Source: a virus. Taken from it: a stretch of DNA of 47,494 nucleotides. A program made the translations under genes and the position numbers. The number at the start of each line of letters is the position of its first letter. The first letter of the stretch is position 1. Under the pieces are notes generated by a model that did not search any database, had not been told where the DNA came from, and worked only from the letters and a program-made list of their open reading frames with translations. Below, one piece after another: positions 26,701 through 45,955 of this stretch. The stretch is from the IMG/VR virus record IMGVR_UViG_3300029868_000036, positions 1 to 47,494 of that record, one strand, 5' to 3'.

Positions 26701-26948
26701 AAGACATAAGAGCATACATGAGCGATAAAGAAAAACAAGCTTATTTAAGTGTTGATAAAATGCTTAAGAAGTTTAACAAGACACTTACTCAGATAAAAGT
26801 TAGTATAGAAGTTGTTTCTTATGATAAGAGTTTAAGTAAGACTCAAAAAGAGAAACTAATCAATGATGCTTATACAAATAAAACAACTATGTTTAAAGAG
26901 ATAACTGAGAGTTTAGAAACTGAACTTAAAAAGCTAAAAGGGGAATAG
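14763..26948 (+). CDS. Giant polyvalent protein (4061 aa): N6-adenine DNA methyltransferase + SF2/SNF2-like helicase + HExxH metallopeptidase-like region; probable packaged/ejected anti-restriction protein
   Basis: Uninterrupted 12,186-nt ORF with a TTG start after aaagg. Methyltransferase, helicase and zincin motifs are listed as separate features. The gene follows the portal-region genes. Confidence 0.85.
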   Translation: MKKLDTFNDNEFQSLDLKEKQTIATNYFDTEIADNEFTALDTSTQTSIRDNFINAQIDFDVSDTVDKVVDFVNPPKNYIQDDTVSDPSIHNPTAPNIDGSIPTIKQKPLSIETPDTSFNQDSTSTMDIATFEDNIKPQEDYINPESGDFELAKRVVNRTNELTANAIQGTYNILGNIKSPIEYLGISTDAMDAQSKKRKEWFKDASDKLNDFVYEQNKFKLNKKDKPTHSWEEVKKGFNTGGVFDIDAWQELGNYVGSEGVASSVDMAEMVATLPLYYASRLQESAEKRAKNQNRKEPNATDYLISAPTTIGSILLDRFGLKAMTSDVVQSVGKKALDGKLTEVAKEIGSKMKDGFIKEGVTEGVQNPLEMFGEEVSTKKGLSSVEQYVDNSLAGVVAGAGMGGTLSGATATGSMALNEYSAKKRETQREEYILDTYKRDVLGNGLVATVDDNGYIEFKQSLEVKVKTIQDEFTNFVINNPEVEVPVEAVENINMQEVIVEDAKKQGLNVLNEDGLNAIDIGFKELEAEIGSTEEIALEPKGVEAEPTQVIEPTATKIETAPKNAKNLYEDDSPALQADNIGTYESGKQVEYTTSDGKSSIVTVAPSDNQYNYDRKKVAVINADGVEFAVSPSTLSIVSSAPSIEESQANARGKKKPTPSAIDAKLALNEKLYGYSEDALAQANKKLFDADKSEEARLKKLSTSDIAEEERAYYENKNTPAETQRAYDFLSTNTKKVQSKQGSLTGLEPTGQNALFDTQASEEYITPSWAKEIVSDTTKYSDIITALTDANNGTYTELSDRAMNALHSAGDPHLVKEIIRFDELDGRWDLNEIEIQEQKALYDLLENNLKGVENGTIPRRTSDTTETQGARSETGVSESKTKDNGDVQETTRGGILQGGIQEDGSTEVPSSKQDEITTDVSINDTNYKIYDDGSVLEIKKDGKLTDFKLDKQKEDSIRQGASWTGSTPEYEYSNLSKVYLVSKLSKASYYGSEQKYKNFIDKLESGDLPKNEATTIALNEMATALDVKAKQLNQTREVYKNESELRKYEGLDKDTIKKYEDGTQRRKDSTASRGSDADLQETAKSDKGQTRVTRDSDASDNRQTPKDIIFDSAKVYSTKGVTDEIPSRLISKQIQKDVARYVKQLADRLGYEFALNAKGKKLSYNGVSDNIAEAGGNTTFKLFKPKSDIGIYVSLNYDLDYKSDSNNDAYTLSDGFVGGHLFRTTSKSGVDGNNQFIPTHKLDSKEFIDDIIYEVENRIKREETKNASENKSSTTTDRTSDTAGVPTAKQKTPESKSDKGSDKSVPNSDKRPDRLSDDRSNRNEVPTKDERVDRLPTTSEDKLNEQQTTNADTVLPKPNERLTPTKNYSLVGKESVELTKGQRKKFNASALDIIKKPLEEITEADREILRHYTGEGGLDAVNENSINQHYTNYETVDAMYSALKSTGITMDKVLEPAVGSGNFVGFNPDASWDVVDIDTTNIEVTKRLYPQIKNFYDETYETFAGKNYDLIISNVPFASEQLLMREHAMTIKPAFKAIHNFYFAHSIDKVKDNGVVAFMTSTGTMDGTTTARSLRKYLMDRGDLIGAFRLPEKSQAKNSHTDTMIDIIFIQKRPSGVESRQNDINNLFINVGSREGFAMNEYFIANPEFLLGDEVLIDKDKTKMGKEGWIVRGESNLEKIKLNYEPYKKLKKSKEEKSNFVDLDEARVYAKNNALVMKVVQDTKVFSEITSDSFTLFDKVVTFRDSEQIVMFGTKLKGNNTNKALHLNRIMTLTEDAVNQESKTLLENALSEIESYKEIYEKSPHNDLGLKKFMKANRADVKLKEFMSYFDKDFNPAAIYGEKTRFKNSGDIKIDSSSPLMDRALFYSNFDSIIDTSKSYEFLNSNDIKQLKSESLFVQSGENEIQLGFMYYAGNVYKKLDNLENLNASGNISSAEYKAQYTNLKGIIPKAIPYKSIKVKGGESWIPSVVKDKLLAVQKGELKVNDSVFNGNASHAELYNRYLNKTALAPKLKDESDSENIQRTMDAEEILNVTLVPKVMQYIESVGLSEILTDEYNRFSNFYVRPEMTGVLLRDLPKSFRGKPFKMQGHQAEGAEKIVFNKKGVLAFAPGGGKTITAVVAVKNLLDQSVMKKPLFVVPVNTIAQWEETVKELYPDASVYEFPKVKSGKNKGNAKEWTQLSREEKEQMAFDLANNRYDFTIIGDTMFQKFGLPSDVLSEYVDDLVAQMIKEESATDDASKKDKKEIVSAEQKRKALKVGLRQAYGGEVEFDFAKLGFDGLIADEVQYYKNIGMQGKDVKGGLGATIAIKYSDKAGKSLTTKDIKDGAEPYSATLGSMRSYDFRFKSKYVSQNNNGNNVILLTGTPTPNKPLELYTLLQHLDENILLEYGIEASSDFVDTFYDIENYETTDSIGKIVKREGLGSMKNLEWLGKILDRYVDYKGFESMPDLPRPKQIEVEHYMKLSKAGEVIFGDVQARLIQAIEDGKLLKSGAITADSIEIALVPMGAGRSASIDLRLYDIGTKGKSELTHDELSELIVNDEATIENNKILKTVDLVKNQYKENPDSGQIIFLDRLKVKNPDGTTTSTHQEIREQVLATGLFDETEVVFVNGGEFVNHNTGKVSKGSIKPDMLNKIMDMYNEGKIKVIIGNTSKLGVGVDLNRKTTDIYQLDIPFRPDEIEQRNNRGVRQGNENASVRTHKFFQLGTFDKRSYDIVIAKRGFNDIYGFSDTSDIVYNDGVSKIDNKSMTDPYQAIIDLESDPFVREKLRKQRVIDNAVVDANNLKNIVTKLEADIRIKQGSIVNYENGIKGVESNLQEKNYPEYKAVKDVAEKKAKLEKYISDNQARKVKYENTIQEIRDDIKTIESKLDGRREMQATQLADTKFITDEYTKDGVNVDIALIKAAYTEQQILESEENVSDSGSDSYMQNKMNHSINNNMTQKEKKNQEEADAYARANGFDEAGANYIPTYSSSNMPTRSKDGTIDIGVKTVLLPSIDAPINADSLRVYLKDIIGNRLYEAKIKAKSALGVYKRQDSAIRVKNYSDMEVMAHEMAHYLDFFYKNKTKKSNDSFFRVEILRNKEEVKALSYTTNPKNVIREGFAEFVRLWLTNYNSLELVAPNMVADFEVKLSSDKVLLKKMTLLQEGLHQYFHQGSHATLRSKQGGELNKTAKKLQRSQAEIAKNFRQATIDKIHSIKRIEAEVLGDNASDAIDSPYKLLQLVNGASSIMYSAMNIGIPTVQDNGDISYSGKALNDIFAPVTSKGEERVRLFSDYLVAKRANELMAQGRENLISKDEIKIGLDLGEMYPEFESVSDEYQEFNDRMLDFYVNMNLITTSQRENFKEFNKNYVPFARVTESVQFGEVAPATIGQRLTGGTRSLGDIMENIINGIESNIKEALISRGKSVFYEMLQESGMGGVYATKVSVEDKLVKSDIQQQAKKIALIMSELGITVSKDGMILSGDITSDNIIDVKEIEANLVQNPEALEFWTHGHKPTSKTAYIDSAIIDDKVVYFEVNDKALVDAMTSFRSANYNELVQGLMTIKNVMTWNITNNPLFYLTNFVRDTISASVLSKNNFKPVLSSIAGAYHFVTKSKTFKEFMASGSGYGTRRTTLGSDIQAMSMLKVNRGLDLVSKLISAMEYGADIFEYGTRVGDFSLAQRSGKSNLQSSYEAREVSTDFAIKGGNDTFSGFMATVPFMKAGINGIDKTARRIFSLNGEMQFSNAIKFKNQLGELQTHKIKIYATGGMIAGLTLALWFQNRDDERYKKLTRDSKLMYWHFFIGDNHIKVPRPYDIGFAFSTIPEIIVDGIYTKHGEQAVKDFLWGSKNMFSVGDISGLFQPILEDMTNTNWTGSPIVPRNMQNLDDLSDQYFSSTPKMYREFGKATGTSPIKLQHYVDGYLGLTAKMIEEVTENLLWNKKEWGARPFERNALEFLTYRFKAREVEPRSKYSEKYYELMKKASGVKASYEKKRKEAFIDKGKDIRAYMSDKEKQAYLSVDKMLKKFNKTLTQIKVSIEVVSYDKSLSKTQKEKLINDAYTNKTTMFKEITESLETELKKLKGE
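18960..19700 (+). other. N6-adenine methyltransferase domain of the giant protein (approximate bounds)
   Basis: SAM-binding motif I is EPAVGSGNF (19125-19151). Catalytic motif IV is NVPF (19302-19313), about 59 aa downstream. Confidence 0.75.
21000..22900 (+). other. SF2 / SNF2-like helicase domain of the giant protein (approximate bounds)
   Basis: Motifs read: Walker A APGGGKT (21087-21107), DEVQ box (21609-21620), LLTGTPTPNKPLELY, motif VI QRNNRGVRQG (22803-22832). Confidence 0.8.
23850..24100 (+). other. Zincin-like HExxH region of the giant protein (approximate bounds)
   Basis: HEMAH is at 23910-23924, with a downstream REGFAEF segment. This is a single short motif, so the call is tentative. 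Confidence 0.45.
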
Positions 26949-27926: not shown

Positions 27927-29012
27927 ATGGCAATTGATAGAAGAGATTATTCGATTAAACTAGAATCTGGATTATGGTCCAATAAAAAGCACACTATATT
28001 TTTATATAGATTTACTTATGAGAAAAAAACATATAGCGGTCTGATAGATTTAACAGATAAAATCAGTTGGAACAAAAAAGATAAAATATCTACTGCTCGT
28101 GCTGAACTTATAAAAATCAAGAATGATAAAAAAGATTCAGTACTTAGTGACAAAGTTACTCTTGATGAGTTTATGTCTAGCTTTTTTAAATTAAGACCTG
28201 ATACAAACAATACTAAAACTAGAAAAAGTCATTATGATAGATATGTAAGTCCGATTTGTGGGATGAAGAGAGTTGTGGACATACGACAACTACATATAAA
28301 ACAGAGCATAAAGAGTCAAGAAGATTTAGGTCTTGCTCCTCGAACTGTTAAGCAGACTCTTGAAGCACTCTCCCCTGCTTTTAAAAGTGCTATTGCAAAT
28401 AGGCTTATCTCTTACAACCCTCTTGATGGCATAGTTATTAAACTACCTAAAACAAAGAAAATAGTTAGTGAGGCTGGTGTAGAACTTACAAAAATATATA
28501 AAGCTATATATGAAGAGTTTGGAGATGATCCTTTTTATCTTTCTCTTTTTCTGTTTGCCCTTCAAGGTAGAAGAAGAGGAGAGATACTTACTCTTAAGTG
28601 GGAAGATGTCAGTATAGATAACTCTTACTACATTTTGAGAAACACTAAGAATAATGAAGAGCAGAAGATATTTTTACCTAATGTTATCAAAGACAATTTA
28701 AAAGAGATACCTCGCGTTAGTGAGTGGGTTTTTACTTCTCGTAGAACTGGTTCGCATCTCGTGGATATTAGAAAGATTACTAATAAGCTTAAGGCTAGGC
28801 TTCAAGATGATAAATTCGGCATACACTACTTAAGAAATGTAATAGTAAGTGCTATGGCTGAACAAGGCTTAGAGAGTATGCACCTTAGTGGTGCTTTAGG
28901 GCATAACGACCCTAACACTATCAAGAAGTATCTTACTATGAACTACTTGAAGTCTAGTGAGTTGGCTAGTGGGGTCATTGATGGGATAGTTTTAAACTCT
29001 CCTTTAAAATGA
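27927..29012 (+). CDS. int: Tyrosine integrase
   Basis: 361 aa. Catalytic residues are recognisable: GRRRGEILTLKWEDV (Arg), HYLRN (His-x-x-Arg), GHNDPNTIKKYL (His...Tyr). The gene is adjacent to attP. Confidence 0.85.
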   Translation: MAIDRRDYSIKLESGLWSNKKHTIFLYRFTYEKKTYSGLIDLTDKISWNKKDKISTARAELIKIKNDKKDSVLSDKVTLDEFMSSFFKLRPDTNNTKTRKSHYDRYVSPICGMKRVVDIRQLHIKQSIKSQEDLGLAPRTVKQTLEALSPAFKSAIANRLISYNPLDGIVIKLPKTKKIVSEAGVELTKIYKAIYEEFGDDPFYLSLFLFALQGRRRGEILTLKWEDVSIDNSYYILRNTKNNEEQKIFLPNVIKDNLKEIPRVSEWVFTSRRTGSHLVDIRKITNKLKARLQDDKFGIHYLRNVIVSAMAEQGLESMHLSGALGHNDPNTIKKYLTMNYLKSSELASGVIDGIVLNSPLK

Positions 29013-30357: not shown

Positions 30358-30663
30358 TTATCTATATCTATACTCAATCATACTCTTAGCAAGAGCTAAC
30401 TCTACCATGTCATCCCAGTAGCCTAAACCATCAAGGTGTTCTAGTAACTCAAGATACTTCTTGTAAGTATCTATCTTTTTTTCATCACTCCTTATCTGCC
30501 CTTTTGCATGTTTTCTATACTCATGCTTAAATATATTCGCTTTACAAAACCCCATCATCTCTGTTACAGTGAGTAGTCCTTCTAGTATTTCTATAGCACT
30601 CTTTTCATCTATGTCATAGTGTGCTGAATCTTTATTTATCAATGGGTGTAGTTTCTTTTTCAT
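30358..30663 (-). CDS. DUF3310-like phage protein
   Basis: 101 aa. The pattern HYDIDEKSAIEILEG...FCKANIFKHEYRKHAKG...DTYKKYLELL resembles the DUF3310 family. Confidence 0.5.
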   Translation of the reverse strand: MKKKLHPLINKDSAHYDIDEKSAIEILEGLLTVTEMMGFCKANIFKHEYRKHAKGQIRSDEKKIDTYKKYLELLEHLDGLGYWDDMVELALAKSMIEYRYR

Positions 30664-32300
30664 ACTATTTTCTCCTTTGTATTTAAATGTTTTTTGAGTC
30701 CAAAAATGACTCCTTTTATTTTCTTCATTTCAAAACTTTTCTTCTCATAATCATCTTGTGAATTGATAATAAGTTGAATTTGTCTTTCGTGATAAGCTAT
30801 GAGAATCATCTTGAGCTGTTTCGTTAGCTCATCTTCTGTATAAATAGTCAGTCCATCTCTTAGGAGAAGTCCTCCAAGTGTTGCATCTTTGGATTTGAGC
30901 ATCTCGAACTCTCTTTGATGGTAACTAAACATAGGTGTATCTATAAAGTCAAGTACTATTTCAAAAAAAGTATCATTTTCGCTTGCAGTCTTTATGATGT
31001 TCATCTCGTTTATATTTATGAGCTGACTCTGTTGTGCTGGTTGCTGCACAAACTCTTCATTTGTACTTATAGTGATTATATGGTTTTGGTTTATGTTGAG
31101 CACTTTTGCTACATAAGGCTTGTACTCATCTTGGATAAGAGGGCTTAAAGTCCTTAAGAACTGTTGTACTTCTTGCAGAGCTTCTTGTTTTTGTTGAGGG
31201 ATATTTAGCTTATAGTTTTGGGCTATATGTGAAATAGCATACTTAATAAATGGAATGCTCTTACCCATAATCTCATACAGTTCTTCTTTGTTGTCATCTT
31301 TTACCATATCGGCTGGGTCTTTTCCCTCGGGAAAAACTACTACCCCACCATGTATATCATGTGAGCACAAAAGCTTACTTGCTTTAAATGCAGCAGATAG
31401 TCCTGCCTTATCTCCATCAAAGCAGATAAGAGCTTTTGCCCTAGCTTTTTTTATGATGTTGCAGTGAAGCTCAGTTAATGCAGTTCCCATCGTTGCTACT
31501 GCTGTCTGTATGCCCGCTTGATGGAACATAACTACATCTAAGTAACCCTCCGTAACTACGAATGTACCTTTTTTGTAGATATGCTCTTTTGCTATGTTGT
31601 ATCCGTACAGGTTACGAGACTTATCAAAGAGTTTGGTTTGTGGGGAGTTTATATACTTTGCTCCTCTTGTATCGCCTTGGAGTATGCGACCACCAAAACC
31701 TATGAGCTTGCCTGTATGGTTTCTTATGGGGAAACTGATGCGTTTGGTTAGCCTTGCATAAGTTTTGCTCTTCTCATCCATCGCAACTACTCCGCACTCC
31801 ATAGCATCACTCATACTAAAGAAGTTCTCAGGAAGTGTTTGCAGTTGCAGGTCTGATGTAGGTGCGAAACCTATCTCAAAAGTTTTTATACTCTCGTTGC
31901 TTATGCCTCTCTCATGCAAGTACTCTAAGATGTCTTTACTTATATGTTTTAGATAAAAGTTGTTCATGTGTTCCATTAGTTTGGAGTAGTCTTTTTTTTC
32001 TACACTTGAGTCGTACTCTAAAGTAAAGTTCATATCGTTTGCTATGTACTCAACTGACTCTATAAATGTAAGTTTTTTATACTCTTGGACAAAGCCTATA
32101 GCATCTGAACCATAACCACAACCGAAACAGTGGCATATCTGCTTAGATGGACTAATGACAAAGCTTCCACTCTTCTCTTCATGAAAAGGACAGTTAGCCT
32201 TAAAGTTCGCTCCAGCTTTTTTAAGCTCGATAGAGTTACTTATGATGTCTACTATATCTATCTGAGCCTTTAAAGACTCTAATGAAGTGCTTTTTATCAT
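30660..32300 (-). CDS. dnaG: DnaG-type DNA primase
   Basis: 546 aa. It has a CHC2 zinc finger (CPFHEEKSGSFVISPSKQICHCFGCG) and a TOPRIM motif (VVTEGYLDVVMF ... DGDKAG). Confidence 0.9.
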   Translation of the reverse strand: MIKSTSLESLKAQIDIVDIISNSIELKKAGANFKANCPFHEEKSGSFVISPSKQICHCFGCGYGSDAIGFVQEYKKLTFIESVEYIANDMNFTLEYDSSVEKKDYSKLMEHMNNFYLKHISKDILEYLHERGISNESIKTFEIGFAPTSDLQLQTLPENFFSMSDAMECGVVAMDEKSKTYARLTKRISFPIRNHTGKLIGFGGRILQGDTRGAKYINSPQTKLFDKSRNLYGYNIAKEHIYKKGTFVVTEGYLDVVMFHQAGIQTAVATMGTALTELHCNIIKKARAKALICFDGDKAGLSAAFKASKLLCSHDIHGGVVVFPEGKDPADMVKDDNKEELYEIMGKSIPFIKYAISHIAQNYKLNIPQQKQEALQEVQQFLRTLSPLIQDEYKPYVAKVLNINQNHIITISTNEEFVQQPAQQSQLININEMNIIKTASENDTFFEIVLDFIDTPMFSYHQREFEMLKSKDATLGGLLLRDGLTIYTEDELTKQLKMILIAYHERQIQLIINSQDDYEKKSFEMKKIKGVIFGLKKHLNTKEKIV

Positions 32301-34108: not shown

Positions 34109-34975
34109 TTATATCTCCTCTATTGTGATTTTGTAGTTATTGTTATTTGAGTGTTTTACAAAGTCTTCAGTATCAATAGCGATGCGACCTTCTAAGTCGC
34201 CACTGCTTAAGCTTATAAAATTTCCCATGTCGTTTACTGTTCCAAAACCATAAGAGATAAATACTTTGCTTTTGTTTATCTTCCTTTGAGGTACTTCTTT
34301 TACTTTAGCACCATCCCATCCCTCTAAACTTTTAAAGTTCTTTATCTCATCACGGGTAATCTCTTTTTTTACTATGAGATCATAGACTTCTTTTTGTATC
34401 TTCTTATCGGGGAGTCTTGCTATCTCATCTAAAACAGATAAGCCTATATCTCTTTTTCCCTCTTCTATATCTTTGATGATGCTCTCGTCGAGCTTGAGAC
34501 AAGAAAAAGCTTTAGAGAGATAAGACTGTGACTTCCCTATAGCTTTTGCTAAGTCGCGTTTACATTCATACTTTCCACTTGCTTGTAGCTTCCCGATATG
34601 AACTGCTATCTCGAAGTCTGTTAAGTCCTCTCTTTGTATGTTCTCTATAAGTGCAAGTTCTAAGACTTTTGCATCATCTACATTTACTATGTGTGTTTTT
34701 ATGGTTGTCATAGTTGTAAACTGCTTATGAGCACGGTATCTTCTCTCACCGCTTACTATCATGTAACCATCATCGCGTTTGACAACAACTATAGGTTGCA
34801 AAAGTCCGTTTGTCTCTATGTCTCTTGCTAGCTCTATGAGTGCATACGAGTCAAACTCTTTACGGGGTTGCTTAGGATTTGCATAGATTTTTGAGAGTTC
34901 TATCTCTGCGAATGAGCTTATGCCACCTGTACGAGTGTTTCCCTCTGTCGCTTTTTTAATTGCCGATAAGTTCAT
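34109..34975 (-). CDS. parB: ParB-family partition / DNA-binding protein
   Basis: The ParB N-terminal domain motifs are PKQPRKEF ... LLQPIVV ... IVSGERRYRA. Confidence 0.85.
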   Translation of the reverse strand: MNLSAIKKATEGNTRTGGISSFAEIELSKIYANPKQPRKEFDSYALIELARDIETNGLLQPIVVVKRDDGYMIVSGERRYRAHKQFTTMTTIKTHIVNVDDAKVLELALIENIQREDLTDFEIAVHIGKLQASGKYECKRDLAKAIGKSQSYLSKAFSCLKLDESIIKDIEEGKRDIGLSVLDEIARLPDKKIQKEVYDLIVKKEITRDEIKNFKSLEGWDGAKVKEVPQRKINKSKVFISYGFGTVNDMGNFISLSSGDLEGRIAIDTEDFVKHSNNNNYKITIEEI

Positions 34976-35570
34976 CTCTTAGTCCTCTTATCTCTTCTTT
35001 TGCTCTGTCGTTATTTGTGTCAAAAACACTAGCACCTACACCAAGAGTAGACTTATATAGCTTTCTACTTCTTATGACTGTGCTAAGGAGTTTATATTGT
35101 TCTCCTATGGCTTCTTTTATGATGCTAAAATTACGAGTGAGTGGGTGGATGTTGTTGAGCACTATGTTAAACTCAGTATCTCCAAGTATGAGAGTATCAA
35201 GTATGCCCTCAAATGTTTTAAAGCCTAAAACCTCTGTGACACTATCACTTATAGGTATGAGTACTTTATGAGAGCAGTCTATAGCTGTTCTGTTTATGTC
35301 GCTATCAAAACCGCCAATATCTACTATGTAATAGTCGCTCTTTTTGTTTGTTGCTTGTAAAAGAACTTCTAGTACTTCACCCACTGTTTTAGGTTGTAGT
35401 ACTTCTATGTCATCAAGTCCACGGATTTGGTTTACAAAGTATAGTGTCTGCTGAAAGTCAAGGTCTACGAGTGTTACACTCTTATCTATCTCTTTAAGCG
35501 AATGTGCTAATTGCCAAGCTAGAGTGCTTTTACCTACTCCGCCTTTTGTGTGTGCTACTGTTATTGTCAT
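34956..35570 (-). CDS. parA: ParA-family partition ATPase
   Basis: The deviant Walker A is AHTKGGVGKST. The protein is 204 aa and overlaps the parB start by 20 nt. Confidence 0.9.
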   Translation of the reverse strand: MTITVAHTKGGVGKSTLAWQLAHSLKEIDKSVTLVDLDFQQTLYFVNQIRGLDDIEVLQPKTVGEVLEVLLQATNKKSDYYIVDIGGFDSDINRTAIDCSHKVLIPISDSVTEVLGFKTFEGILDTLILGDTEFNIVLNNIHPLTRNFSIIKEAIGEQYKLLSTVIRSRKLYKSTLGVGASVFDTNNDRAKEEIRGLRDELIGN

Positions 35571-35620
35571 TTCCTAACCCCTTAGTTTATGTTGTGTTCA
35601 TTATATAAATATGTTTTTAG

Positions 35621-35650
35621 TTAAGTGGGGTATATAAAGTACCCACTTAA
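35621..35650 (-). promoter_or_regulatory. Conserved motif copy 4 (TATATACCCCACTTAA on the - strand) embedded in a 30-bp palindrome upstream of parA
   Basis: TTAAGTGGGGTATATAAAGTACCCACTTAA has inverted TTAAGTGGG / CCCACTTAA arms. The - strand copy ends 51 nt upstream of the parA ATG, and TATAAT lies between. Confidence 0.5.
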
Positions 35651-35651
35651 A

Positions 35652-36299
35652 TTACCACTCTCTTCTGTTTTTCCCTCGGGAAATCTCTGCATTACTTACA
35701 CTGGCATATCTTGCCGTGGTTGCTATACTTGCATGACCTATATCTTGTCTTATGTGCTCAAGGCTCAAGTCTTTGCTATGAGCTGTAGTTATATAACCGC
35801 TTCTAAAGCTATGAGTAGAGTAGAGAGTTCCTAGAACTGAGTGTATAAACTTGTTCATCATAAGTTTAAGAGCACTTACAGTCATAGGTTTATCTGAGTT
35901 ATTTTTTGCAAAAAGATAGCCTATGTTTTTTTGTAGCAACTCTTCTAAAAACTTCACTTGCTCTCTGTTTTCATCAAATAATATAAGTCGTGGTGTTTTA
36001 GTCTTTGTCGCGTTTGTCAAAGAGTACTCATTATCTTGTACCATCTTTTGAATCTCATCTGTATGAATGTTTATAATCTCACTCACACGACACCCAGTTA
36101 AATAAAGCAGAGTAAATGCACTATGGAGTTTTACCTTTGTGCTACGCTTTATACTAAGACTCTTATGTGTTGCATTTATGAGTCTGTCAAACTCTTTTTT
36201 GAGTATGGGCTTTTTTACTCTGGTAGTTCCTATTTTCCTACCAACTTGTTCTTTTCCTTCTTGTAATCTCTGTAGATTTATTGATTTTGTATGATTCAT
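35652..36299 (-). CDS. Small tyrosine recombinase (Xer/resolvase-like)
   Basis: 215 aa. Catalytic motifs are TGCRVSE (Arg), HSFRSGY (His-x-x-Arg) and GHASIATTARY (His...Tyr). It has no long N-terminal arm-binding domain and sits directly upstream of parAB. Confidence 0.8.
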   Translation of the reverse strand: MNHTKSINLQRLQEGKEQVGRKIGTTRVKKPILKKEFDRLINATHKSLSIKRSTKVKLHSAFTLLYLTGCRVSEIINIHTDEIQKMVQDNEYSLTNATKTKTPRLILFDENREQVKFLEELLQKNIGYLFAKNNSDKPMTVSALKLMMNKFIHSVLGTLYSTHSFRSGYITTAHSKDLSLEHIRQDIGHASIATTARYASVSNAEISRGKNRREW

Positions 36300-37939: not shown

Positions 37940-38137
37940 ATGAAAAATATAACTTATAAAGATATTGCAGAATATATTGGGAAATCAGAGGGTACAATTA
38001 AGAACTGGAACAAAAACTTCCCATCTTTACTAGCATTAGTAAAGCTTGGTGCATTTTGTAAAAAAAATGATTTAAGCCAAGAAAAAATAGAAAAGCTTGT
38101 AGAAATACAGGATGCGGTTAAAGGGGTTGAAGGATGA
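37940..38137 (+). CDS. Small HTH DNA-binding protein
   Basis: 65 aa. YKDIAEYIGKSEGTIKNWNK is a helix-turn-helix pattern. The gene is divergent from the early operon. Confidence 0.55.
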   Translation: MKNITYKDIAEYIGKSEGTIKNWNKNFPSLLALVKLGAFCKKNDLSQEKIEKLVEIQDAVKGVEG

Positions 38138-38583
38138 AAAAGATTGTATTAGTATTATTATTATTATTAGTTAGTAATAACTTACTTGCAGAAGATAACT
38201 TGAACTGGATGTTTGAAGACAAATCTAGTAATGAAGTAAAGCAAGATACAAAGATAACGAAAGCAAATTGTATCAGACCTATACAGCTAGAAGCACTTAA
38301 TGACAATAGAGACGTGCATACAATTAACAAAATGAGAGAACGATACTCTAGTTGCATGACCAACTTCATTAATAAACAAGTAGAACTATATAACATATCC
38401 AAAAACAATAACAATAGAAAATCATATATGATGTCTATAAATAAAGCCAAAGATGAACTTCATACATATCTTAATAAGGATATTGAAGAAAATCAACAGC
38501 ACCAGAGTACAGTAAAACTTGGTGGATTAGGTTATAAGAGAGAGTTAGAGGAAGAGAAGAAGAAAGTAGAAAAACTTAATTGA
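38134..38583 (+). CDS. Secreted protein with signal peptide (moron candidate)
   Basis: The N-terminus MKKIVLVLLLLLVSNNLLA-EDN is a signal peptide. The ATGA overlaps the upstream gene. Confidence 0.55.
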   Translation: MKKIVLVLLLLLVSNNLLAEDNLNWMFEDKSSNEVKQDTKITKANCIRPIQLEALNDNRDVHTINKMRERYSSCMTNFINKQVELYNISKNNNNRKSYMMSINKAKDELHTYLNKDIEENQQHQSTVKLGGLGYKRELEEEKKKVEKLN

Positions 38584-38966
38584 AAAACCTATTAATCTCT
38601 TTTATTATTTTACTTCCTGTGCTATCTATCAGTCTATTAGCTAGCTCACAGAATGGATATACTCCTCAAAAGATTAAAACACTCGCATACAACTACAAAA
38701 AAGTAAGAGAACATAGGCTTACTTTAAATATTGCAAAGAACCCACTTATATTCTTTATGTCTTATGAGTTTAAAGGTTATGTTACGGGTATACTAGATAA
38801 CGATACGAGTCTACATCAATGCAAAAAACAATATTCATACTCAGAGATAATATATAAAACAGCAATCGTTATTTCTGAATCTAAACTCGATAAAAAAGTA
38901 CAGTCTCATATTAGTACTCTTGTTGCAATAAATTTCGCTTGTGATAGTTCTAATTGGAGTAAATAA
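38580..38966 (+). CDS. Secreted protein with signal peptide (TTG start; moron candidate)
   Basis: The N-terminus MKNLLISFIILLPVLSISLLASSQ is a signal peptide. The TTGA overlaps the upstream stop. Confidence 0.5.
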   Translation: MKNLLISFIILLPVLSISLLASSQNGYTPQKIKTLAYNYKKVREHRLTLNIAKNPLIFFMSYEFKGYVTGILDNDTSLHQCKKQYSYSEIIYKTAIVISESKLDKKVQSHISTLVAINFACDSSNWSK

Positions 38967-39133
38967 GAGAGTCAATATTTCTACAATCATCTTAGCCATA
39001 CAAATGTATGCACTAAAGCACTAAAAGCCCTCACAGAGCGTCCTACAGCCATACAACTACAAGAAAACACTACAAACAGAGCAAAAAATTTTCCTAACAG
39101 CCGAGCCGCACATCTTCCACCACCTCACAAACT

Positions 39134-39160
39134 TCGCCGCCTTTTGAAATTTTTTTGGCT
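39134..39160. repeat. Left arm of a perfect 27-bp inverted repeat
   Basis: TCGCCGCCTTTTGAAATTTTTTTGGCT is the exact reverse complement of 39875-39901. Confidence 0.9.
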
Positions 39161-39428
39161 ATTTTTAGGTTATTCCGATTTTAATATGAGAAATAGAGTT
39201 GTATTAGAATAGCTATTATATAAAAGAGTTGAATCTGAGGACATCGGACTTAGATTCCGTGAGAACTACTGTTTTTACGGAAGGAATTGCAGGTTGAGTT
39301 TGGTTTTGTGAGATTTTTCGGAATGTTCGGGTTTCGGGTGTGGGGTTTATGTGGTGTTGAGTTAGTGGAACTGATGGGAAATTCCTAATAGTTGTATCGT
39401 TTTGCTGACATCGGGAAGATGATGCGAG

Positions 39429-39650
39429 TGGATTATGTTGTTTTTACTTACAATGCTATGATGTCGGGAAATTTAGTAAAAGTGGTGTAAACATATTTAA
39501 TTATTTATTTTAATATGTTTAGTTTAAGTTGAGATGGATTATATCTAAGTTTAGTGGTGTGTTTAAGGTTCGGGCTTGTTTTTGGTGGATTATGGCTTAA
39601 GGTTGGAGTGGTAGTCAATCATTAGTTGACTTGATGGTTCATGGATTATG
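39429..39650 (+). repeat. Four direct TGGATTAT(G/A) repeats (iteron-like) plus an AT-rich palindrome
   Basis: Copies start at 39429, 39535, 39586 and 39642 (spacings 106, 51, 56 bp). The AT-rich AAACATATTTAA-N8-TTTAATATGTTT lies at 39489-39520. Confidence 0.5.
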
Positions 39651-39874
39651 TTGATGGTGGTGTGGTGGTGCTTGTTTGTGGTGGTACTTACTTGTGGGTT
39701 GTGGTGGTGCTCAAAAAGTGTTTATCTCCTCTGAACTCCGTTGGGGGGGGTAATTCCCCAAGCCTGACTCTGTCTGAACTATATATGAGGTATTTGCCCT
39801 ATGAATATTTTAAACTAGATTTAGTTTCCCCTAAAAGTGAAACCAAAAAGACAGTGTGATACTCGTATAAATCA

Positions 39875-39901
39875 AGCCAAAAAAATTTCAAAAGGCGGCG
39901 A
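39875..39901. repeat. Right arm of the perfect 27-bp inverted repeat
   Basis: AGCCAAAAAAATTTCAAAAGGCGGCGA is the reverse complement of 39134-39160. The arms are separated by 714 bp. Confidence 0.9.
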
Positions 39902-40020
39902 TTTTTCAGGTTAAAATATCCATCTTGAAAATTTTGCGAATTTTCATACAAATAGAGTACTTTTTTTTACTTTTAAAAATGCTAGTATCTCTTGAAAGTA
40001 CCTTGACAACGAGCTTTGAA

Positions 40021-40085
40021 GTACTAGACACAAATGTAGTCTAGCTAGACACAATCGTGGTCGAGTACTAAACACAATTGTGGTC
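40021..40085 (+). promoter_or_regulatory. Three tandem operator-like repeats (consensus TA(G/A)ACACAAT-GTGGTC) downstream of the repressor gene
   Basis: The TAGACACAA/TAAACACAA cores are at 40025, 40046 and 40069 (spacing 21 and 23 bp). The third contains the palindrome CACAATTGTG. TTGACA is at 40003-40008 and TATAAT at 40088-40093. Confidence 0.5.
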
Positions 40086-40105
40086 ACTATAATAATACCA
40101 ACCTA

Positions 40106-40140
40106 TCCCTTATAAAATAACTAAAGGGAATTTTTACTTT
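40106..40140 (+). terminator. Weak candidate intrinsic terminator (+ strand)
   Basis: A 6-bp stem TCCCTT / AAGGGA with a 12-nt loop is followed by ATTTTTACTTTTT. The stem is short, so confidence is low. Confidence 0.3.
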
Positions 40141-40171
40141 TTACTAAAAGCTATAGATTTTTAAAAGAGTC

Positions 40172-40846
40172 TTATAGTTTAGATATTTGCATATTTGCAA
40201 CAACTCTTCCAATTATTCTAAAATCTTCACAGTCTGCTTTGAGTTGTGGGAAGAGTGGATTATCTGATTTTAAAATTATAGATTTATCACGAGGCTCTAT
40301 AAAAATTCTTTTCACATAGACTTCATCGCATAGGAATAGAACATATATTTTCCCGTTTACAGCATCAGTATCACTCTTGTCTATAAAAATTACATCTTCA
40401 TCTTCTATGGTCCCACTCATGGAGTTACCCACTACTCTTATGGCTTCAATGCTTTTAGAAGTAGTTGGAAGCATATCAGGAGCCATATTTATGTATATAG
40501 GTTTACAGTCTCCGTTGGTGCATCCATATCCAGCACTAGCATTAATATCCTTATAGTAAGGGATTGAAATTGTTTTTGAGAACATGGCACTCACTGCTGA
40601 TATATCACCAAGAAGTAAATCTCCATTATTTGGGATAGCTTCTCCTACTCCATCCTCAATCCATTCTTTAGAAAATCCATACCGTTCGCTCAATAGTGTA
40701 GAATCTTTAAGTTTTATATTTTTAGTTTTGTCTTGCTCCCAGCCCTTTATTTTCCCATCTGTACAGCTTAGTATATCGGCTAGTTCTTGCTGATTTATGC
40801 CTAATTTTTTACGAATAAATCTTATTCTATCTGATAACTTTTCCAA
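40172..40846 (-). CDS. cI: CI/LexA-like repressor (XRE HTH + S24 autopeptidase domain), TTG start
   Basis: The N-terminal HTH is IRKKLGINQQELADILSCTDGKIKGWEQ. The C-terminal S24 motifs are VVGNSMSGT (Ser) and VYVKRI (Lys). AAGGAG lies 5 nt upstream of the TTG. Confidence 0.85.
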   Translation of the reverse strand: MEKLSDRIRFIRKKLGINQQELADILSCTDGKIKGWEQDKTKNIKLKDSTLLSERYGFSKEWIEDGVGEAIPNNGDLLLGDISAVSAMFSKTISIPYYKDINASAGYGCTNGDCKPIYINMAPDMLPTTSKSIEAIRVVGNSMSGTIEDEDVIFIDKSDTDAVNGKIYVLFLCDEVYVKRIFIEPRDKSIILKSDNPLFPQLKADCEDFRIIGRVVANMQISKL

Positions 40847-40972
40847 TTTATCTCCTTGTTTTATCCCTAATTAATGTCTATATAAGATTTAAAGTACTAA
40901 ACTGACGGACATTAAAAGATATAAATAGTTATTTTAATACTATATTATACCTTAAATACGGAGATTTACATC

Positions 40973-41152
40973 ATGTGTGCGAATATTTTTACCATAAAAG
41001 AAGTAGAGTCTATCCTCAAAATAAATGAAAAAGCAGTCAGACATCTTTTAAATATTAAAAAACTAGAACATTTTAAAGTAAGTGGCAAGATCAGAGTAAG
41101 CGAAAATCAAATAGATGAGTATTTAGAGTCTGTAAAAGTATCTGCTGCATGA
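40973..41152 (+). CDS. Small excisionase-family (HTH_17-like) DNA-binding protein, divergent from cI (Cro/Xis-like); below the ORF-track cut-off
   Basis: Manual translation gives MCANIFTIKEVESILKINEKAVRHLLNIKKLEHFKVSGKIRVSENQIDEYLESVKVSAA (59 aa). GGAG lies 9 nt upstream. Its stop overlaps the next ATG (ATGA). Confidence 0.6.
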   Translation: MCANIFTIKEVESILKINEKAVRHLLNIKKLEHFKVSGKIRVSENQIDEYLESVKVSAA

Positions 41153-41817
41153 CTTACAACATAAACATAAATCAGTTAAAAGCTCAGGAGTGGGATTTAT
41201 CACTCAAAGCTTGTTTTGGAATGTGTAAGATGGCTGACTTGTCATCTTGGGCTAATCCTGTAGTGGTCGATAAAAAAGTTTATTATGTACTCTACAGGAA
41301 TAAACTACTCCAAGAGATACCCTTAGTTGGAAAATCTCTTACAACCGCTTCTCGCATAATTACTGAACTTGAAAACAAGGGTATTATTGAGTCAATAAAT
41401 AAAGCGACTACACCAGCTTATAGATTAACAGATAAAGGTAAAGAGTGGTTAAGTGATACTGCTTGCAAAATTTCAAATGATTGCGAAAATAATCCACTTG
41501 AAAAATCAGATGAAGAAAAGGTTACATTTACTTTTAGACTCAAAACAGAAATGGAATATGAAGATTTAAGTGATGATTATAAACATTATCTACATGATGG
41601 TTGCATGGTGTATCTCAAAAAAGAAGGACTTTCATCATCAAACTATGATGATTTTATAAATAAATATAAAAGTACTGGTAAAAAGTATAAAGACTGGAGA
41701 GCTGCTTTTAAAACATGGTGTGCTAATGCTATACGATATGGTGCAAAAGTAACTAAAACTCAAAAAAATAGCTCAAATGGTGGCGAAAGCTACTCTCTTG
41801 ATGATGTGAATTTATAA
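41149..41817 (+). CDS. Winged-helix-containing protein (replication initiator candidate)
   Basis: 222 aa. GKSLTTASRIITELENKGIIESINK resembles a MarR/wHTH recognition segment. The gene sits at the head of the replication module. Confidence 0.35.
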   Translation: MTYNININQLKAQEWDLSLKACFGMCKMADLSSWANPVVVDKKVYYVLYRNKLLQEIPLVGKSLTTASRIITELENKGIIESINKATTPAYRLTDKGKEWLSDTACKISNDCENNPLEKSDEEKVTFTFRLKTEMEYEDLSDDYKHYLHDGCMVYLKKEGLSSSNYDDFINKYKSTGKKYKDWRAAFKTWCANAIRYGAKVTKTQKNSSNGGESYSLDDVNL

Positions 41818-41818
41818 A

Positions 41819-42259
41819 ATGATTCGCTTACTTGATGGACTTGTTCTACTTAAAGAGATTGATGAGATAGATGGGATTGGATATACATCAAGTCAGCTCA
41901 AAATCATGCACCCTGAAAAAATTATAGTCATAAGACATAATTCATACATTTATAACAGTGCTTTATGTGATATAGCAAAAAAGAATGTAACTAATCTTGA
42001 TGATTATGTTCAGCTTGGTGCATTATCTGAAAATATAAACATTACAAAAAAGCAATTTTTACAGAGACTTCGATTTATGGAAAAAACAGGGACTAAGATA
42101 TTTGACTATATTATGGTTTCAAACATCTACTTTATAAAGCTAGATGATGAGTTTAAATACCTACTACAAAACTTTATACCGTTTGTCGCTACTTATGCCG
42201 ATGCACAACACATAGTTCACTGTAAAATGCTAGGTGACTTAAAGATAGGATTCTACTAA
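41819..42259 (+). CDS. Hypothetical protein
   Basis: 146-aa ORF, tightly packed between neighbouring genes. Confidence 0.45.
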   Translation: MIRLLDGLVLLKEIDEIDGIGYTSSQLKIMHPEKIIVIRHNSYIYNSALCDIAKKNVTNLDDYVQLGALSENINITKKQFLQRLRFMEKTGTKIFDYIMVSNIYFIKLDDEFKYLLQNFIPFVATYADAQHIVHCKMLGDLKIGFY

Positions 42260-42447
42260 TGGACAATACAAAATGGTTAAATACTGAGACATTGGCTCAA
42301 GAGTTTGGAATTGCTGGAAGTACACAAGCAAAAATGAGAAAAGAGAAAAAAATACCTTATTCAAAAGTTGGTGGATTTATATTTTACAGTAGAAAAAAGA
42401 TAGATGAATGGTTAGAACAACATAGCTTTGAAGCACAAGGAGTATAA
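42259..42447 (+). CDS. Excisionase-family HTH DNA-binding protein
   Basis: 62 aa. LNTETLAQEFGIAGSTQAKMRKEKKIPYSKVGGFIFYSRKKIDEWL is the AlpA/Xis-type HTH pattern. Confidence 0.6.
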   Translation: MDNTKWLNTETLAQEFGIAGSTQAKMRKEKKIPYSKVGGFIFYSRKKIDEWLEQHSFEAQGV

Positions 42448-43774
42448 AAAAATGGATAACTTAGAAAATATTAGAATGCTGGTACTCTCATCTATACTAA
42501 CAGCAAATGAGTTTAGTGAGATAGACTTAGATGTAGTCATGAACTCTCATATAAGCAAAGAGTGGTTCATAGATGAGGCTCAAGCTACTATGTTTGAAGT
42601 CATGAGTGTTTGTCATACTGGTTCTATCGCATTTGATGATAGTGTTGTCATAAACTACATGAAAAAAGCAGGTGTAGTTCACCCTGAAAATATGCTTTTA
42701 AACATAATGGCACAAAAACAAGTCCCTCAAAATGTTTTAATGGAGCATATACAAACACTTAAAGAGTCATACAGAAGAAGAATGTTACAGGTGTTAAACA
42801 CTGACATAGCAAAAATGCTTCAAGATGAGACAGTAAGTTCAGATGCTATAACTCAGATGATACAAAACTCCATAGACGACTATGCAAGTCTCAACAAGGG
42901 ATCATCTACTCGCAGACTAAGCGAAGTAAGAAAAATAAGAAAATCAAAACCACAAGCACAGAGAATAAGAACTCACATACCATTTATAGATACAGTGCTT
43001 ACAGACAAGCATGGTGCAAAAGGCATAAGAAATGAGGGGCTATTTTTTATAAGTGGAAAAAAACAGAGTGGAAAAACTTTTGTACTCACACGACTTATAG
43101 AAAATGTATCTAGAGAACATCCCGTTATGTTTGGAAGTATGGAGTTTGGGCAAGAGCTTTATGATGAAAACATAGAACAGCAACAAGAAGAGAAAGTGTT
43201 TGATGGGAACATAGATAACATATTTACCTTTGATGATATTTATGATGTAAGTGGAATTATAGCTGAGATAAGACTCCAGCATAAGCTATTTGGCATAAAG
43301 CTAGTAGCACTTGACTCAATGATGAGAATGACAAACAACAACCCAGACCTTAAAACAGATGAGAGAAGAATATCAGAAATGTTCTCTAAGCTTGGAAAGT
43401 TATCTAAAGAGTTGAAGGTGCCTATTATAGTAATTGTTCAGAGTTCTAAAGAGGATTTAAAGAGTAGCATCATTAGTGTTAAGGGTAGTATGAATGCTGA
43501 CCATGAGGCTTATGTATGGTTCCATCTTGCCAAGACTAAACCTAAAGAGCCTGATGATGAGATGCGAACGGTTATCTGGAATAAAAATAAAGATACACAT
43601 AAGCACCCAAAACAGAACCTTATGTTTGTTCCTCAAACAAGTGACTTTTATAGAGTTGAAGTTGATGAGCATGGTAATGCTGCTAAAGCACTTGATAAGT
43701 TTAGAGCACCACCAATAAATCATGTAGAAGTAGCATATGAAGAAGCACCTACTTTAGATATGCCCGTATTTTAA
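42428..43774 (+). CDS. DnaB-like replicative helicase
   Basis: 448 aa. It has a DnaB-N-like helical N-terminus, Walker A FISGKKQSGKTF and Walker-B-like LVALDSMMRM. Confidence 0.7.
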   Translation: MKHKEYKKMDNLENIRMLVLSSILTANEFSEIDLDVVMNSHISKEWFIDEAQATMFEVMSVCHTGSIAFDDSVVINYMKKAGVVHPENMLLNIMAQKQVPQNVLMEHIQTLKESYRRRMLQVLNTDIAKMLQDETVSSDAITQMIQNSIDDYASLNKGSSTRRLSEVRKIRKSKPQAQRIRTHIPFIDTVLTDKHGAKGIRNEGLFFISGKKQSGKTFVLTRLIENVSREHPVMFGSMEFGQELYDENIEQQQEEKVFDGNIDNIFTFDDIYDVSGIIAEIRLQHKLFGIKLVALDSMMRMTNNNPDLKTDERRISEMFSKLGKLSKELKVPIIVIVQSSKEDLKSSIISVKGSMNADHEAYVWFHLAKTKPKEPDDEMRTVIWNKNKDTHKHPKQNLMFVPQTSDFYRVEVDEHGNAAKALDKFRAPPINHVEVAYEEAPTLDMPVF

Positions 43775-44401: not shown

Positions 44402-45955
44402 ATGAGTGATATTCAAAAGATTTTAGCAAAAAAGAAAGCAGAACCTCTTGCTTTAGCCCTTGCTAGAAAAGACCTACTGCATTATGCAAGGTATATATTT
44501 GCAGAGGAGTATGAGACCCCACTTCTTGAGTCGTGGTATCATAGACTTCTTTGTGATGCACTGATGAAGGTTGCAAGTGGAGATGTTACTAGACTCATCA
44601 TCAACATGCCTCCAGCTTATGGAAAAACAGAGTTTGCAGTACGACTTTTTGTCTCATGGTTTTTGGGAAATGCACCAAAGAAAAGAGTTATATATACTTC
44701 TTACTCTGATGACTTAGCTACAAAAACACCTGCTGAAGTAAAGGAACTTATAAAGTCAAAATCGTATAACAAAGTGTTTGATGGTATTTCACTTGGTAGA
44801 AAAACAGCAGATAAGGAGTGGTACTTAGAGTCTAAGGGTGGAATGTTCTCCACAACTGTAGGTGGTGGTATCACTGGTTTTCACGGAAATATAGTCATCA
44901 TAGATGATCCAATGAAAGCAATAGAGAAAAACTCAAAGGCTACAAGAGATTTAGTTACGAACTTTTACAAAGGCTCTATATCTTCAAGACTCAGAAAAGA
45001 TGACCCCAATAGTGCCATAATAGTAATCATGCAAAGACTCCATGAAGATGACTTAGTCGGATACTTGCTTGATGAAGAAGATGGAATCTGGACACATATA
45101 AATCTTACAGGTATAGAAGATAAACCACAAATGTACGACTTCTTTGAGTATCACTATAAAAGAGCTGCAAATGAACCACTTAATCAATTTTTTGAGACAC
45201 AAGAAGCATTAGCACAACAAAAAAAAGTGATGAAAGAGGACTGGTACTCTCAGTATATGCAAGACCCTCGTACTATAGAAACTGGGTATGTGAGTAGTGA
45301 AGATTTTGTGAGTGTTGCCTCGTGGGAGCTTAGTGAAGATAACAAGTGCATAAGTATAGACCCTGCTCAATCTACAAAGCAGACATCCGATAACAGAGCC
45401 ATAAGTGTTGTAGGAAGTTTTTTAAGTGAAGAAAAAATAGAACTTTTTAATGTGTATGGAACTTGGTTTGGGAAGTGGACTAACGAAGTGTTTATCATTC
45501 AAATCATTGAAGTTATGACAAAATATCCTAATGTTCCTGTTTTTATGGAAAGTAGTGGTGGAGGAATAATTACAGAGCAGTATCTAAAAAAAGAGATACA
45601 AAAAGTAAACTATCAACTCAAACTTCAAGGTAAAAAAACTCTTACAAATAGAGTAATACTTTTTAATCCAAAAACAAAAATAAGTAAAAACCAAAAAATA
45701 GACCAAAGCATAACATACTTGAAAAACCATCAAATACGAACGGTTGTAGGTGCTGTAGGACAAGAGCAGGTAGAGTTAGAGTATAAAGGTTTCCACCCAG
45801 AAAAAGACTCTAAAGAGGATGACTGCATAGAGACTATAGCAAATGTGGTTATAAATAATTTTGTGACTCCAAAGTCTCCAGCAAAGAAAAAAACAACCAT
45901 CTCTATGGGCGATAATCGCAGAAGAAATTCTCATCGTGGTAAGTATAGAATTTAA
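44402..45955 (+). CDS. terL: Terminase large subunit
   Basis: 517 aa. Walker A-like is MPPAYGKTEF and Walker B is NIVIIDDP. A C-terminal nuclease-like region carries conserved acidic residues. Confidence 0.85.
   Translation: MSDIQKILAKKKAEPLALALARKDLLHYARYIFAEEYETPLLESWYHRLLCDALMKVASGDVTRLIINMPPAYGKTEFAVRLFVSWFLGNAPKKRVIYTSYSDDLATKTPAEVKELIKSKSYNKVFDGISLGRKTADKEWYLESKGGMFSTTVGGGITGFHGNIVIIDDPMKAIEKNSKATRDLVTNFYKGSISSRLRKDDPNSAIIVIMQRLHEDDLVGYLLDEEDGIWTHINLTGIEDKPQMYDFFEYHYKRAANEPLNQFFETQEALAQQKKVMKEDWYSQYMQDPRTIETGYVSSEDFVSVASWELSEDNKCISIDPAQSTKQTSDNRAISVVGSFLSEEKIELFNVYGTWFGKWTNEVFIIQIIEVMTKYPNVPVFMESSGGGIITEQYLKKEIQKVNYQLKLQGKKTLTNRVILFNPKTKISKNQKIDQSITYLKNHQIRTVVGAVGQEQVELEYKGFHPEKDSKEDDCIETIANVVINNFVTPKSPAKKKTTISMGDNRRRNSHRGKYRI

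Follow-up and report, generated by a model that had tools for sequence, protein, structure and literature searches.

The genome of a 47.5-kb temperate phage (IMG/VR record IMGVR_UViG_3300029868_000036; the whole stretch analysed, 47,494 nucleotides, is referred to below as the window) carries a long perfect inverted repeat close to its cI-type repressor gene. We found that the two arms of this repeat are copies of a ~25-nt strand-specific box (an A-run, then CAAATGNNGGCGA) and that the repeat is the site at which the box switches strand, the innermost two copies pointing apart across the segment between them. We confirm the inverted repeat and find that it belongs to a conserved cis-acting module of ~1.2 kb in the region of immunity and replication control, composed of polarity boxes, a strand-skewed core and tandem repeats matched to a putative initiator, which does not appear to have been described so far. 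We tentatively favour the view that the element is part of a replication-origin region, with the arms as oppositely oriented strand-specific signals. The nearest repressor homologues are in Sulfurimonas and Campylobacterales metagenome-assembled genomes (MAGs), and the family is one of Campylobacterales (Sulfurimonas-type) temperate phages. Sulfurimonas and related Campylobacterales are key sulfur-oxidizing chemolithoautotrophs of vents and redoxclines; to our knowledge, nothing is known experimentally about the control of replication or immunity in their phages.

The arms of the inverted repeat are copies of a polar box

The 27-mer TCGCCGCCTTTTGAAATTTTTTTGGCT at 39134–39160 (+ strand) is the exact reverse complement of 39875–39901, as the original prediction had stated, and the repeat extends imperfectly to 39 nt (39129–39167 and 39868–39906, 87% complementarity). 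The accompanying claim that such a match is unlikely to arise by chance also held, since none of 100 dinucleotide-preserving shuffles of the window contained one, even with 3 mismatches allowed. In the window, the left arm (39134–39160) carries the box as an A-run plus TTTCAAAAGGCGGCGA read on the − strand and is the sole − strand copy, and the right arm (39875–39901) carries the same box read on the + strand. By sequence, the arms are without internal complementarity, so that neither forms a hairpin of its own.

We collected relatives of this locus from IMG/VR, ENA, JGI, NCBI MAGs and Logan assemblies, with the arm, interior blocks and cI homologues as queries and the cI gene (40172–40846, − strand; helix-turn-helix (HTH) plus peptidase S24) as the anchor. 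The same architecture was found in 23 distinct Campylobacterales phages or prophages, always downstream of a cI-type repressor gene and in a constant order: left arm, conserved blocks, right arm, phage-specific tandem repeats, hairpin and cI. All 23 phages keep the left arm as TCGCCGCC[A/T]TTTG plus a T-run, and the right arm is duplicated in tandem (2–3 copies) in several relatives. Element length ranges from 491 to 1078 bp and the spacing of the arms, which is highly variable, from 490 to 1080 bp. The perfect part of the inverted repeat is 27–28 bp long in 3 phages, 22–24 bp in 5 and only 6–9 bp in 5. The arm cores, identical in the window, differ by 1–2 nt in L027, L038, L045, L054, L066, L084 and L090, and in about a third of the phages there is a mismatch in the G+C core. 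The arms co-evolve: 88% of cells were paired and 9 pairs changed on both sides, which was matched by 0–2 of 500 shuffles. Pairing, a common binding factor and gene conversion are all possible sources of this co-evolution.

The arm core with its A/T run recurs three to seven times per phage. In a count covering 4 kb on each side, all 25 copies to the left of the element midpoint lay on the − strand and all 70 copies to the right on the + strand. This polarity is independent of gene direction, as cI (−) lies among + boxes and the accessory operon (+) beside − boxes, and the boxes flank the cI–cro unit on both sides. In the window, a third copy, CAAATGGTGGCGA at 41774–41786, lies inside the gene for a winged helix-turn-helix (wHTH) protein; its core (TCGCCACCATTTG, 1 mismatch) is on the − strand, so the box reads on +. 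This part of the gene encodes the disordered C-terminal tail of the protein (residues 205–222, with a predicted local distance difference test score (pLDDT) below 50). Coding boxes occur in two reading frames, as MAAN-stop at the end of cro and as NGGE in the wHTH tail. From the use of two frames and the location in a disordered tail we conclude that the constraint on the coding boxes acts on the nucleic acid. The cro-end box lies 3–9 nt before the start codon of the wHTH gene, at the expected Shine–Dalgarno position, in at least 12 phages (for example, L030, 5684–5703), and is decayed in the window. Overall, 13 of 48 coding boxes lie that near a start codon, compared with 10.6% of random positions. 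Arm variants are sometimes common to the cro-end copy, as in L085 and L045; in L045 the variant is common to the right-arm and cro-end copies and is not in the left arm.

Base composition flips strand at the left arm. On average, GC skew changes from −0.49 over the 120 nt on the left side of this arm to +0.36 inside the element, and each of the 23 phages shows these signs. The interior in the window is strand-asymmetric, with a GC skew of +0.5 to +0.7 and a T-rich + strand, and the left flank (38980–39133, + strand) is C/A-rich, that is, G/T-rich on the − strand. A terminator-like hairpin with a T-run lies on the − strand ~100 nt beyond the left arm (39027–39039), and an equivalent hairpin, GCCCTACAAGGGC followed by TTTT, was read directly from the sequences of most relatives.

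The element has one orientation and one locus

The original prediction had raised the possibility of a DNA inversion switch served by either of the two tyrosine recombinases. These are a 215-aa enzyme (35652–36299, − strand) and the integrase (27927–29012, + strand). The perfect 27-bp repeat in the window fits this proposal, as does the short recombinase, which is FimB-like in size, lies ~2.8 kb away and is conserved in the phage family. Invertons such as fimS and the promoter switches of Bacteroides and Clostridioides are alike in having inverted repeats of 20–30 bp, a few hundred non-coding base pairs and a small tyrosine recombinase. Here, in contrast, none of the 23 phages has the interior in the other orientation relative to cI and cro, and the window phage has a second assembly record (from ENA, possibly the same sample) that is 100% identical and collinear. 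The arms are non-identical in many members, and the box copies in cro and in the winged-helix gene, both essential genes, are direct repeats at which recombination would delete cI. The short recombinase, moreover, is encoded beside parA and parB, where dimer-resolution enzymes are usually found. Assembly breaks were considered as a sign of inversion and rejected, as the Logan contigs of one phage all stop at an internal 21-bp tandem repeat, 580 bp past cI, and not at an arm.

A further proposal was that the arms are the terminal inverted repeats of a non-autonomous mobile element, a miniature inverted-repeat transposable element (MITE). The one point in its favour is the inverted repeat. The target-site duplication that was reported missing is indeed absent (the flanks are ...ACAAACT and TTTTCAG...), the element occupies a single syntenic locus in 23 diverged phages, and the divergence of its interior tracks that of the phage. 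When viral, genome and metagenome collections were searched for the repeat-bounded unit at other sites, nothing beyond the syntenic copies and chance matches came up; exact-pattern scans of genome and metagenome collections with the arm gave only chance matches, several of which fell in a coding gene of Bacteroidetes. No match to the region was obtained by blastn among 50,697 cultured-phage records, and the literature on Sulfurimonas phages does not mention the region. Taken together, the single orientation, the imperfect arms, the lack of copies elsewhere and the missing target-site duplication leave both proposals unsupported; we regard an inversion switch as very unlikely and a MITE as practically untenable. 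A long perfect inverted repeat in a phage does not warrant an inverton call without comparative evidence. One intact copy of the element lies within a 422-kb MAG contig, apparently as part of an integrated prophage, from which it follows that the element is not the phage attachment site (attP).

The class of the adjacent tandem repeats follows a winged-helix protein

Between the right arm and cI lies an A+T-rich spacer (39902–40019; GC content 0.275–0.315 in the 200-nt intervals covering it), a candidate unwinding region, and 118 bp from the right arm begin three iteron-like tandem repeats of ~22–23 bp (AGTACTAGACACAATTGTGGTCG, 40020–40085). The repeats are phage-specific: each phage has 2–5 tandem copies of ~22 bp with a sequence of its own, such as the 4.8 perfect 22-bp copies in L041 (3260–3364). 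They are followed, before the 3′ end of cI, by a hairpin with a T-run (CCCTTATAAAATAACTAAAGGG, 40107–40145) that is probably a bidirectional terminator; an A+T-rich hairpin was read directly from the sequences at the equivalent position in relatives. We rejected the repeats as cI operators, as they are absent from the cI–cro intergenic region of the window and its relatives, a region that is itself conserved across phages. This intergenic region (40847–40972 in the window; ATATCCGTAAGTTTA..., GATATAATA) keeps its sequence even between phages with cI proteins of only 55–70% identity.

The class of the tandem repeats splits exactly as does the N-terminal domain of the wHTH protein. Repeats with the core GCAAATTTTGC belong to a clade of nine phages, and the other repeat types to a second wHTH clade of five phages. 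The genes that separate the repeats from the wHTH gene, cI and cro, group differently from the repeat class. In the window, the wHTH gene encodes a 222-aa protein (41149–41817, + strand), adjoins cro and lies upstream of a 146-aa open reading frame (ORF) and a helicase gene. In a structural model, the protein folds into two domains, the N-terminal one a winged helix, and its best PDB fold matches are the N-terminal domains of RepA_N plasmid initiators, which are weak matches (E ~3e-3). On the basis of the agreement between repeat class and protein clade, together with the fold match, we read the repeats as probable iterons of the winged-helix protein as a putative initiator.

A candidate replication-origin region

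In the origin reading that we tentatively favour, the winged-helix protein, encoded beside the DnaB-like helicase gene, would bind the tandem repeats as iterons, and the DNA would open in the A+T-rich spacer that separates them from the right arm. The arms and the further same-sense boxes would then act as opposed single-strand signals on the two diverging lagging-strand templates, serving priming, helicase loading or fork-related events. The strict polarity of the boxes, the skew flip at the left arm, the conservation of the architecture at a single locus and the agreement of repeat class with wHTH clade were all observed and speak for this reading, whereas the functions as initiator and origin, and what the box recruits, are inferred. 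The phage has its own DnaB-like helicase (42428–43774, + strand) and DnaG primase (30660–32300, − strand), in keeping with this view, and the cumulative skew over the whole window has its turning point, a minimum, at ~37–39 kb. DnaA boxes were considered and rejected: TGGATTATG occurs four times in the window and is not conserved in relatives.

The arrangement has parallels in known origins. The lambda ori (in gene O), P1 oriR and RepA_N plasmids have ~20-bp tandem repeats and a winged-helix initiator encoded beside a helicase or helicase-loader gene, and known iteron origins embed cis elements in the DNA that codes for a flexible part of the initiator. The present locus is alike in having repeats of ~20 bp matched to a winged-helix protein and a cis element in DNA coding for a flexible tail, whereas its repeats lie beyond cI and cro, ~1.1 kb from the gene of the putative initiator, and are joined to a large G/T-skewed module that is common to both initiator clades. 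Chi and KOPS motifs likewise have a strict strand polarity that flips at one point together with GC skew, but they are short and genome-wide, whereas the box here is ~25 nt long and lies within ~3 kb. In the IncQ plasmid RSF1010, iterons occur with two opposed priming signals, one on either strand, and the plasmid itself encodes an initiator, a helicase and a primase (PMC8567376). The oriV of RSF1010/R1162 thus resembles our locus in its iterons with an element-encoded initiator (here putative), its A+T-rich stretch (PMC8567376), its two signals, one per complementary strand and hence an inverted pair, and its own helicase and primase. It differs in that ssiA and ssiB form hairpins, measure 40 nt, are closely spaced and work with a RepB′-type primase, whereas here hairpin-less arms with a possible role in priming lie 0.5–1.1 kb apart around a conserved core, extra same-sense boxes reach into neighbouring genes and the primase is of the DnaG type.

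Several observations weigh against an origin. The wide and variable spacing of the arms is unusual for a compact origin, the arms lack the hairpins of single-strand initiation (ssi) signals, and the boxes are confined to ~3 kb. The RepA_N fold match is barely above those to generic MarR-type winged-helix proteins, and searches of Pfam and NCBIfam assigned the winged-helix protein to no replication family. Gene orientation is a confounder of the cumulative skew. The position of the cro-end box just before the winged-helix start codon fits a role at the RNA level better, and the co-variation of the arms and a consensus fold restricted to the + strand (see below) fit a transcript equally well. 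If the origin reading is true, the module would offer a handle for replicons and genetic tools in these hosts and would be an example of opposed strand signals working with a DnaG/DnaB-type replisome.

Conserved interior and a possible large RNA

The interior consists of three conserved segments and two variable spacers. Segment S1 (39161–39331, + strand) contains the blocks TTATTCCGATTTT (39170–39182), TTTTTACGGAAGGAATTG (39272–39289) and TTTTCGGAATGTTCGGGTTTCGGG (39315–39339). Spacer V1 (39332–39462) is C-poor on the + strand and ~0–360 nt long in relatives. Segment S2 (39463–39627, + strand) has an A+T-rich palindrome (39489–39521) and the pattern GTTTAAGGTT...GGCTTAAGGTT (39561–39604), and its block pattern recovered nine more family members from IMG/VR. 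Spacer V2 (39628–39720) is rich in GGTGGTG, has no more structure than its composition predicts and has a C content of 3–13% in most phages; it is C-rich on the + strand in two. Segment S3 (39721–39828, + strand) contains a G8 run (39743–39750), the near-invariant ATTCCCCAA (39753–39761) and CTCTGTCTGAACTATATATGAGGTATTTGCCCTATGAATATT (39769–39810). The original prediction saw no credible ORF in this 714-bp interior, and we agree: its longest ORF is no more than 72 aa. A small ORF at 39287–39388 (GGAGGAA resembling a Shine–Dalgarno sequence, GTG or TTG start) was rejected because relatives do not maintain its frame; their spacer measures 13 or 14 nt and they contain stops.

Three smaller observations concern the interior. 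The G run before ATTCCCCAA ranges from ~G3 to G10 among phages, and slipped-strand variation is possible. In L030, about three tandem 21-bp repeats (CACATATTTATGTGTAAAT...) lie within V1 (~7225–7290, locus coordinates), and several independent Logan contigs end exactly at these repeats. The block at 39272–39289 and the cI–cro intergenic region have the heptamer TTACGGA in common, which in the block is preceded by an inverted TCCGT half.

Another reading that the original prediction put forward is a long-range closing helix. Here, a G/U-rich transcript of the + strand would have its arms paired in a duplex of at most 27 bp, which closes an RNA of 0.5–1.1 kb or serves to process it; such a transcript could arise if the accessory operon, which is directed into the element, is extended at its 3′ end. 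The left-arm sequence (UCGCCGCCAUUUG plus a U-run) could moreover pair as an antisense with boxes of the same sense in the early-right mRNA, among them the box before the winged-helix start. RNA-based immunity has precedents in P1 and P7 (c4) and in P4 (CI RNA). The arms co-vary as a helix would (the pairing and two-sided changes given above), and they close the minimum-free-energy and centroid folds on both strands. The proximity of coding boxes to start codons, and of the cro-end box to that of the winged-helix gene in particular, speaks for the same reading. So do the conserved blocks with spacers of variable length, which are typical of large RNAs, and the upstream operon, which points into the element without an obvious + strand terminator in nearly all phages.

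Evidence for structure within the interior was weaker. The S1 consensus fold beat column shuffles on the + strand only (z −3.0, compared with −0.8), the S3 consensus fold had a z of −3.0 on the + strand against column shuffles, and local hairpins with compensatory or G–U changes were read directly from the sequences (CUCU/AGAG to CCCC/GGGG; AAACAUAUU/AAUAUGUUU to AAAGGUAUU/AAUACCUUU). However, the interior alone folds marginally better than shuffles (z −1.9), V2 has a mean z of ~0 and V1 of ~−1.2. We rejected the thermodynamic signal of the whole element (z −7) as support, as it comes almost wholly from the arm helix. The covariation sought in related phages was found in the arms, whereas double compensations in the interior are few and most predicted pairs are invariant or G–U in G/U-rich sequence; a crude search for covarying stems returned, besides the arms, only G–U-rich candidates of low information. 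The arm cores are mismatched in about a third of the phages, the L045 variant bypasses the left arm, and the cro-end box is decayed in the window itself. Rfam 15 gave no match at gathering threshold in the window or 19 relatives, and an E-value search of 38900–40200 gave nothing relevant, only snoU61 (E 3.9, well below the gathering score); a tRNA scan likewise gave nothing relevant. Promoter and terminator scans did no better than shuffles, and no conserved promoter or 3′ end was assigned.

The closest RNA comparisons are the RNase III stems of rRNA type, GOLLD and ROOL, with which it has in common a long-range helix between the ends of a phage non-coding unit of 0.5–1 kb, conserved blocks and variable insertions. 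The element described here differs in having no Rfam match, an extremely C-poor sequence and weak interior covariation, and it is known from DNA alone. The multi-copy polar box, with iteron-like repeats adjacent to it, indicates a DNA-level origin role at least as strongly as an RNA helix. We consider a transcript closed by its arms possible but doubtful. An undescribed class of large (0.5–1.1 kb) G/U-rich phage RNA, its ends clamped by boxes and its 5′ box antisense to the mRNA of replication genes, so that it would add an RNA-based level to immunity or replication control in Campylobacterota phages, seems to us unlikely; if true, it would be a new class of large non-coding RNA.

Possible transcriptional control around cI and cro

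The position of the boxes on both sides of the cI–cro unit also fits asymmetric operators for a conserved phage DNA-binding protein that would loop DNA around cI and cro. In a variant of this proposal, which could hold together with it or on its own, Rho would load onto the − transcript of the interior, which is C-rich and G-poor, and onto the C/A-rich + transcript from the left flank, and the two sides would be insulated by a stop to the convergent transcription of the accessory operon and cI. Transcription coming in from the left or the right would read a strongly G-poor strand, terminators lie on the − strand left of the element and, as a hairpin, beside cI, and variable spacers constrained only in composition fit a Rho utilization (rut) site. 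However, a protein operator does not explain why the boxes keep so strictly to one strand on each side, and no candidate for a box-binding protein was identified. A Rho-loading site of 500 bp with highly conserved internal blocks would be unusual, and V2 is C-rich on the + strand in two phages. We therefore judge transcriptional control of either kind improbable. Recruitment of a NusG paralogue by ops-like boxes was considered and rejected, as no NusG-like gene was found.

Neighbouring genes and further observations

The repeat-bounded segment sits between a small accessory operon (37940–38966, + strand) and the 3′ end of cI. The operon is headed by a 65-aa HTH gene (37940–38137, + strand), which is conserved in the family at 65–68 aa, whereas the operon behind it, pointing into the element, is variable. 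The HTH gene is divergent from the leftward operon of recombinase, parA and parB, with which it may form a second regulatory switch. In L036, the accessory slot just past the left arm holds a full-length 5S rRNA gene (3122–3237, − strand in locus coordinates; Rfam, 73 bits) directed towards the element.

ParB (34109–34975, − strand) and ParA (34956–35570, − strand) are encoded next to the 215-aa recombinase, and this block (34109–36299, − strand), with its short Xer-like recombinase, is kept in a family that also has an integrase. No canonical parS was found, nor a repeat array near parAB. To the right of the element, cI is followed by the cro-like HTH_17 gene (40973–41152, + strand), the winged-helix gene, the 146-aa ORF (41819–42259, + strand), the helicase gene and the terminase gene (44402–45955, + strand). 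A related phage contig, L085, carries a diversity-generating-retroelement RNA at 9801–9930 (+ strand; Rfam Phage_DGR, 74 bits). In the window, the block of structural genes includes an ORF of 4061 aa (14763–26948, + strand), which takes up a quarter of the phage genome.

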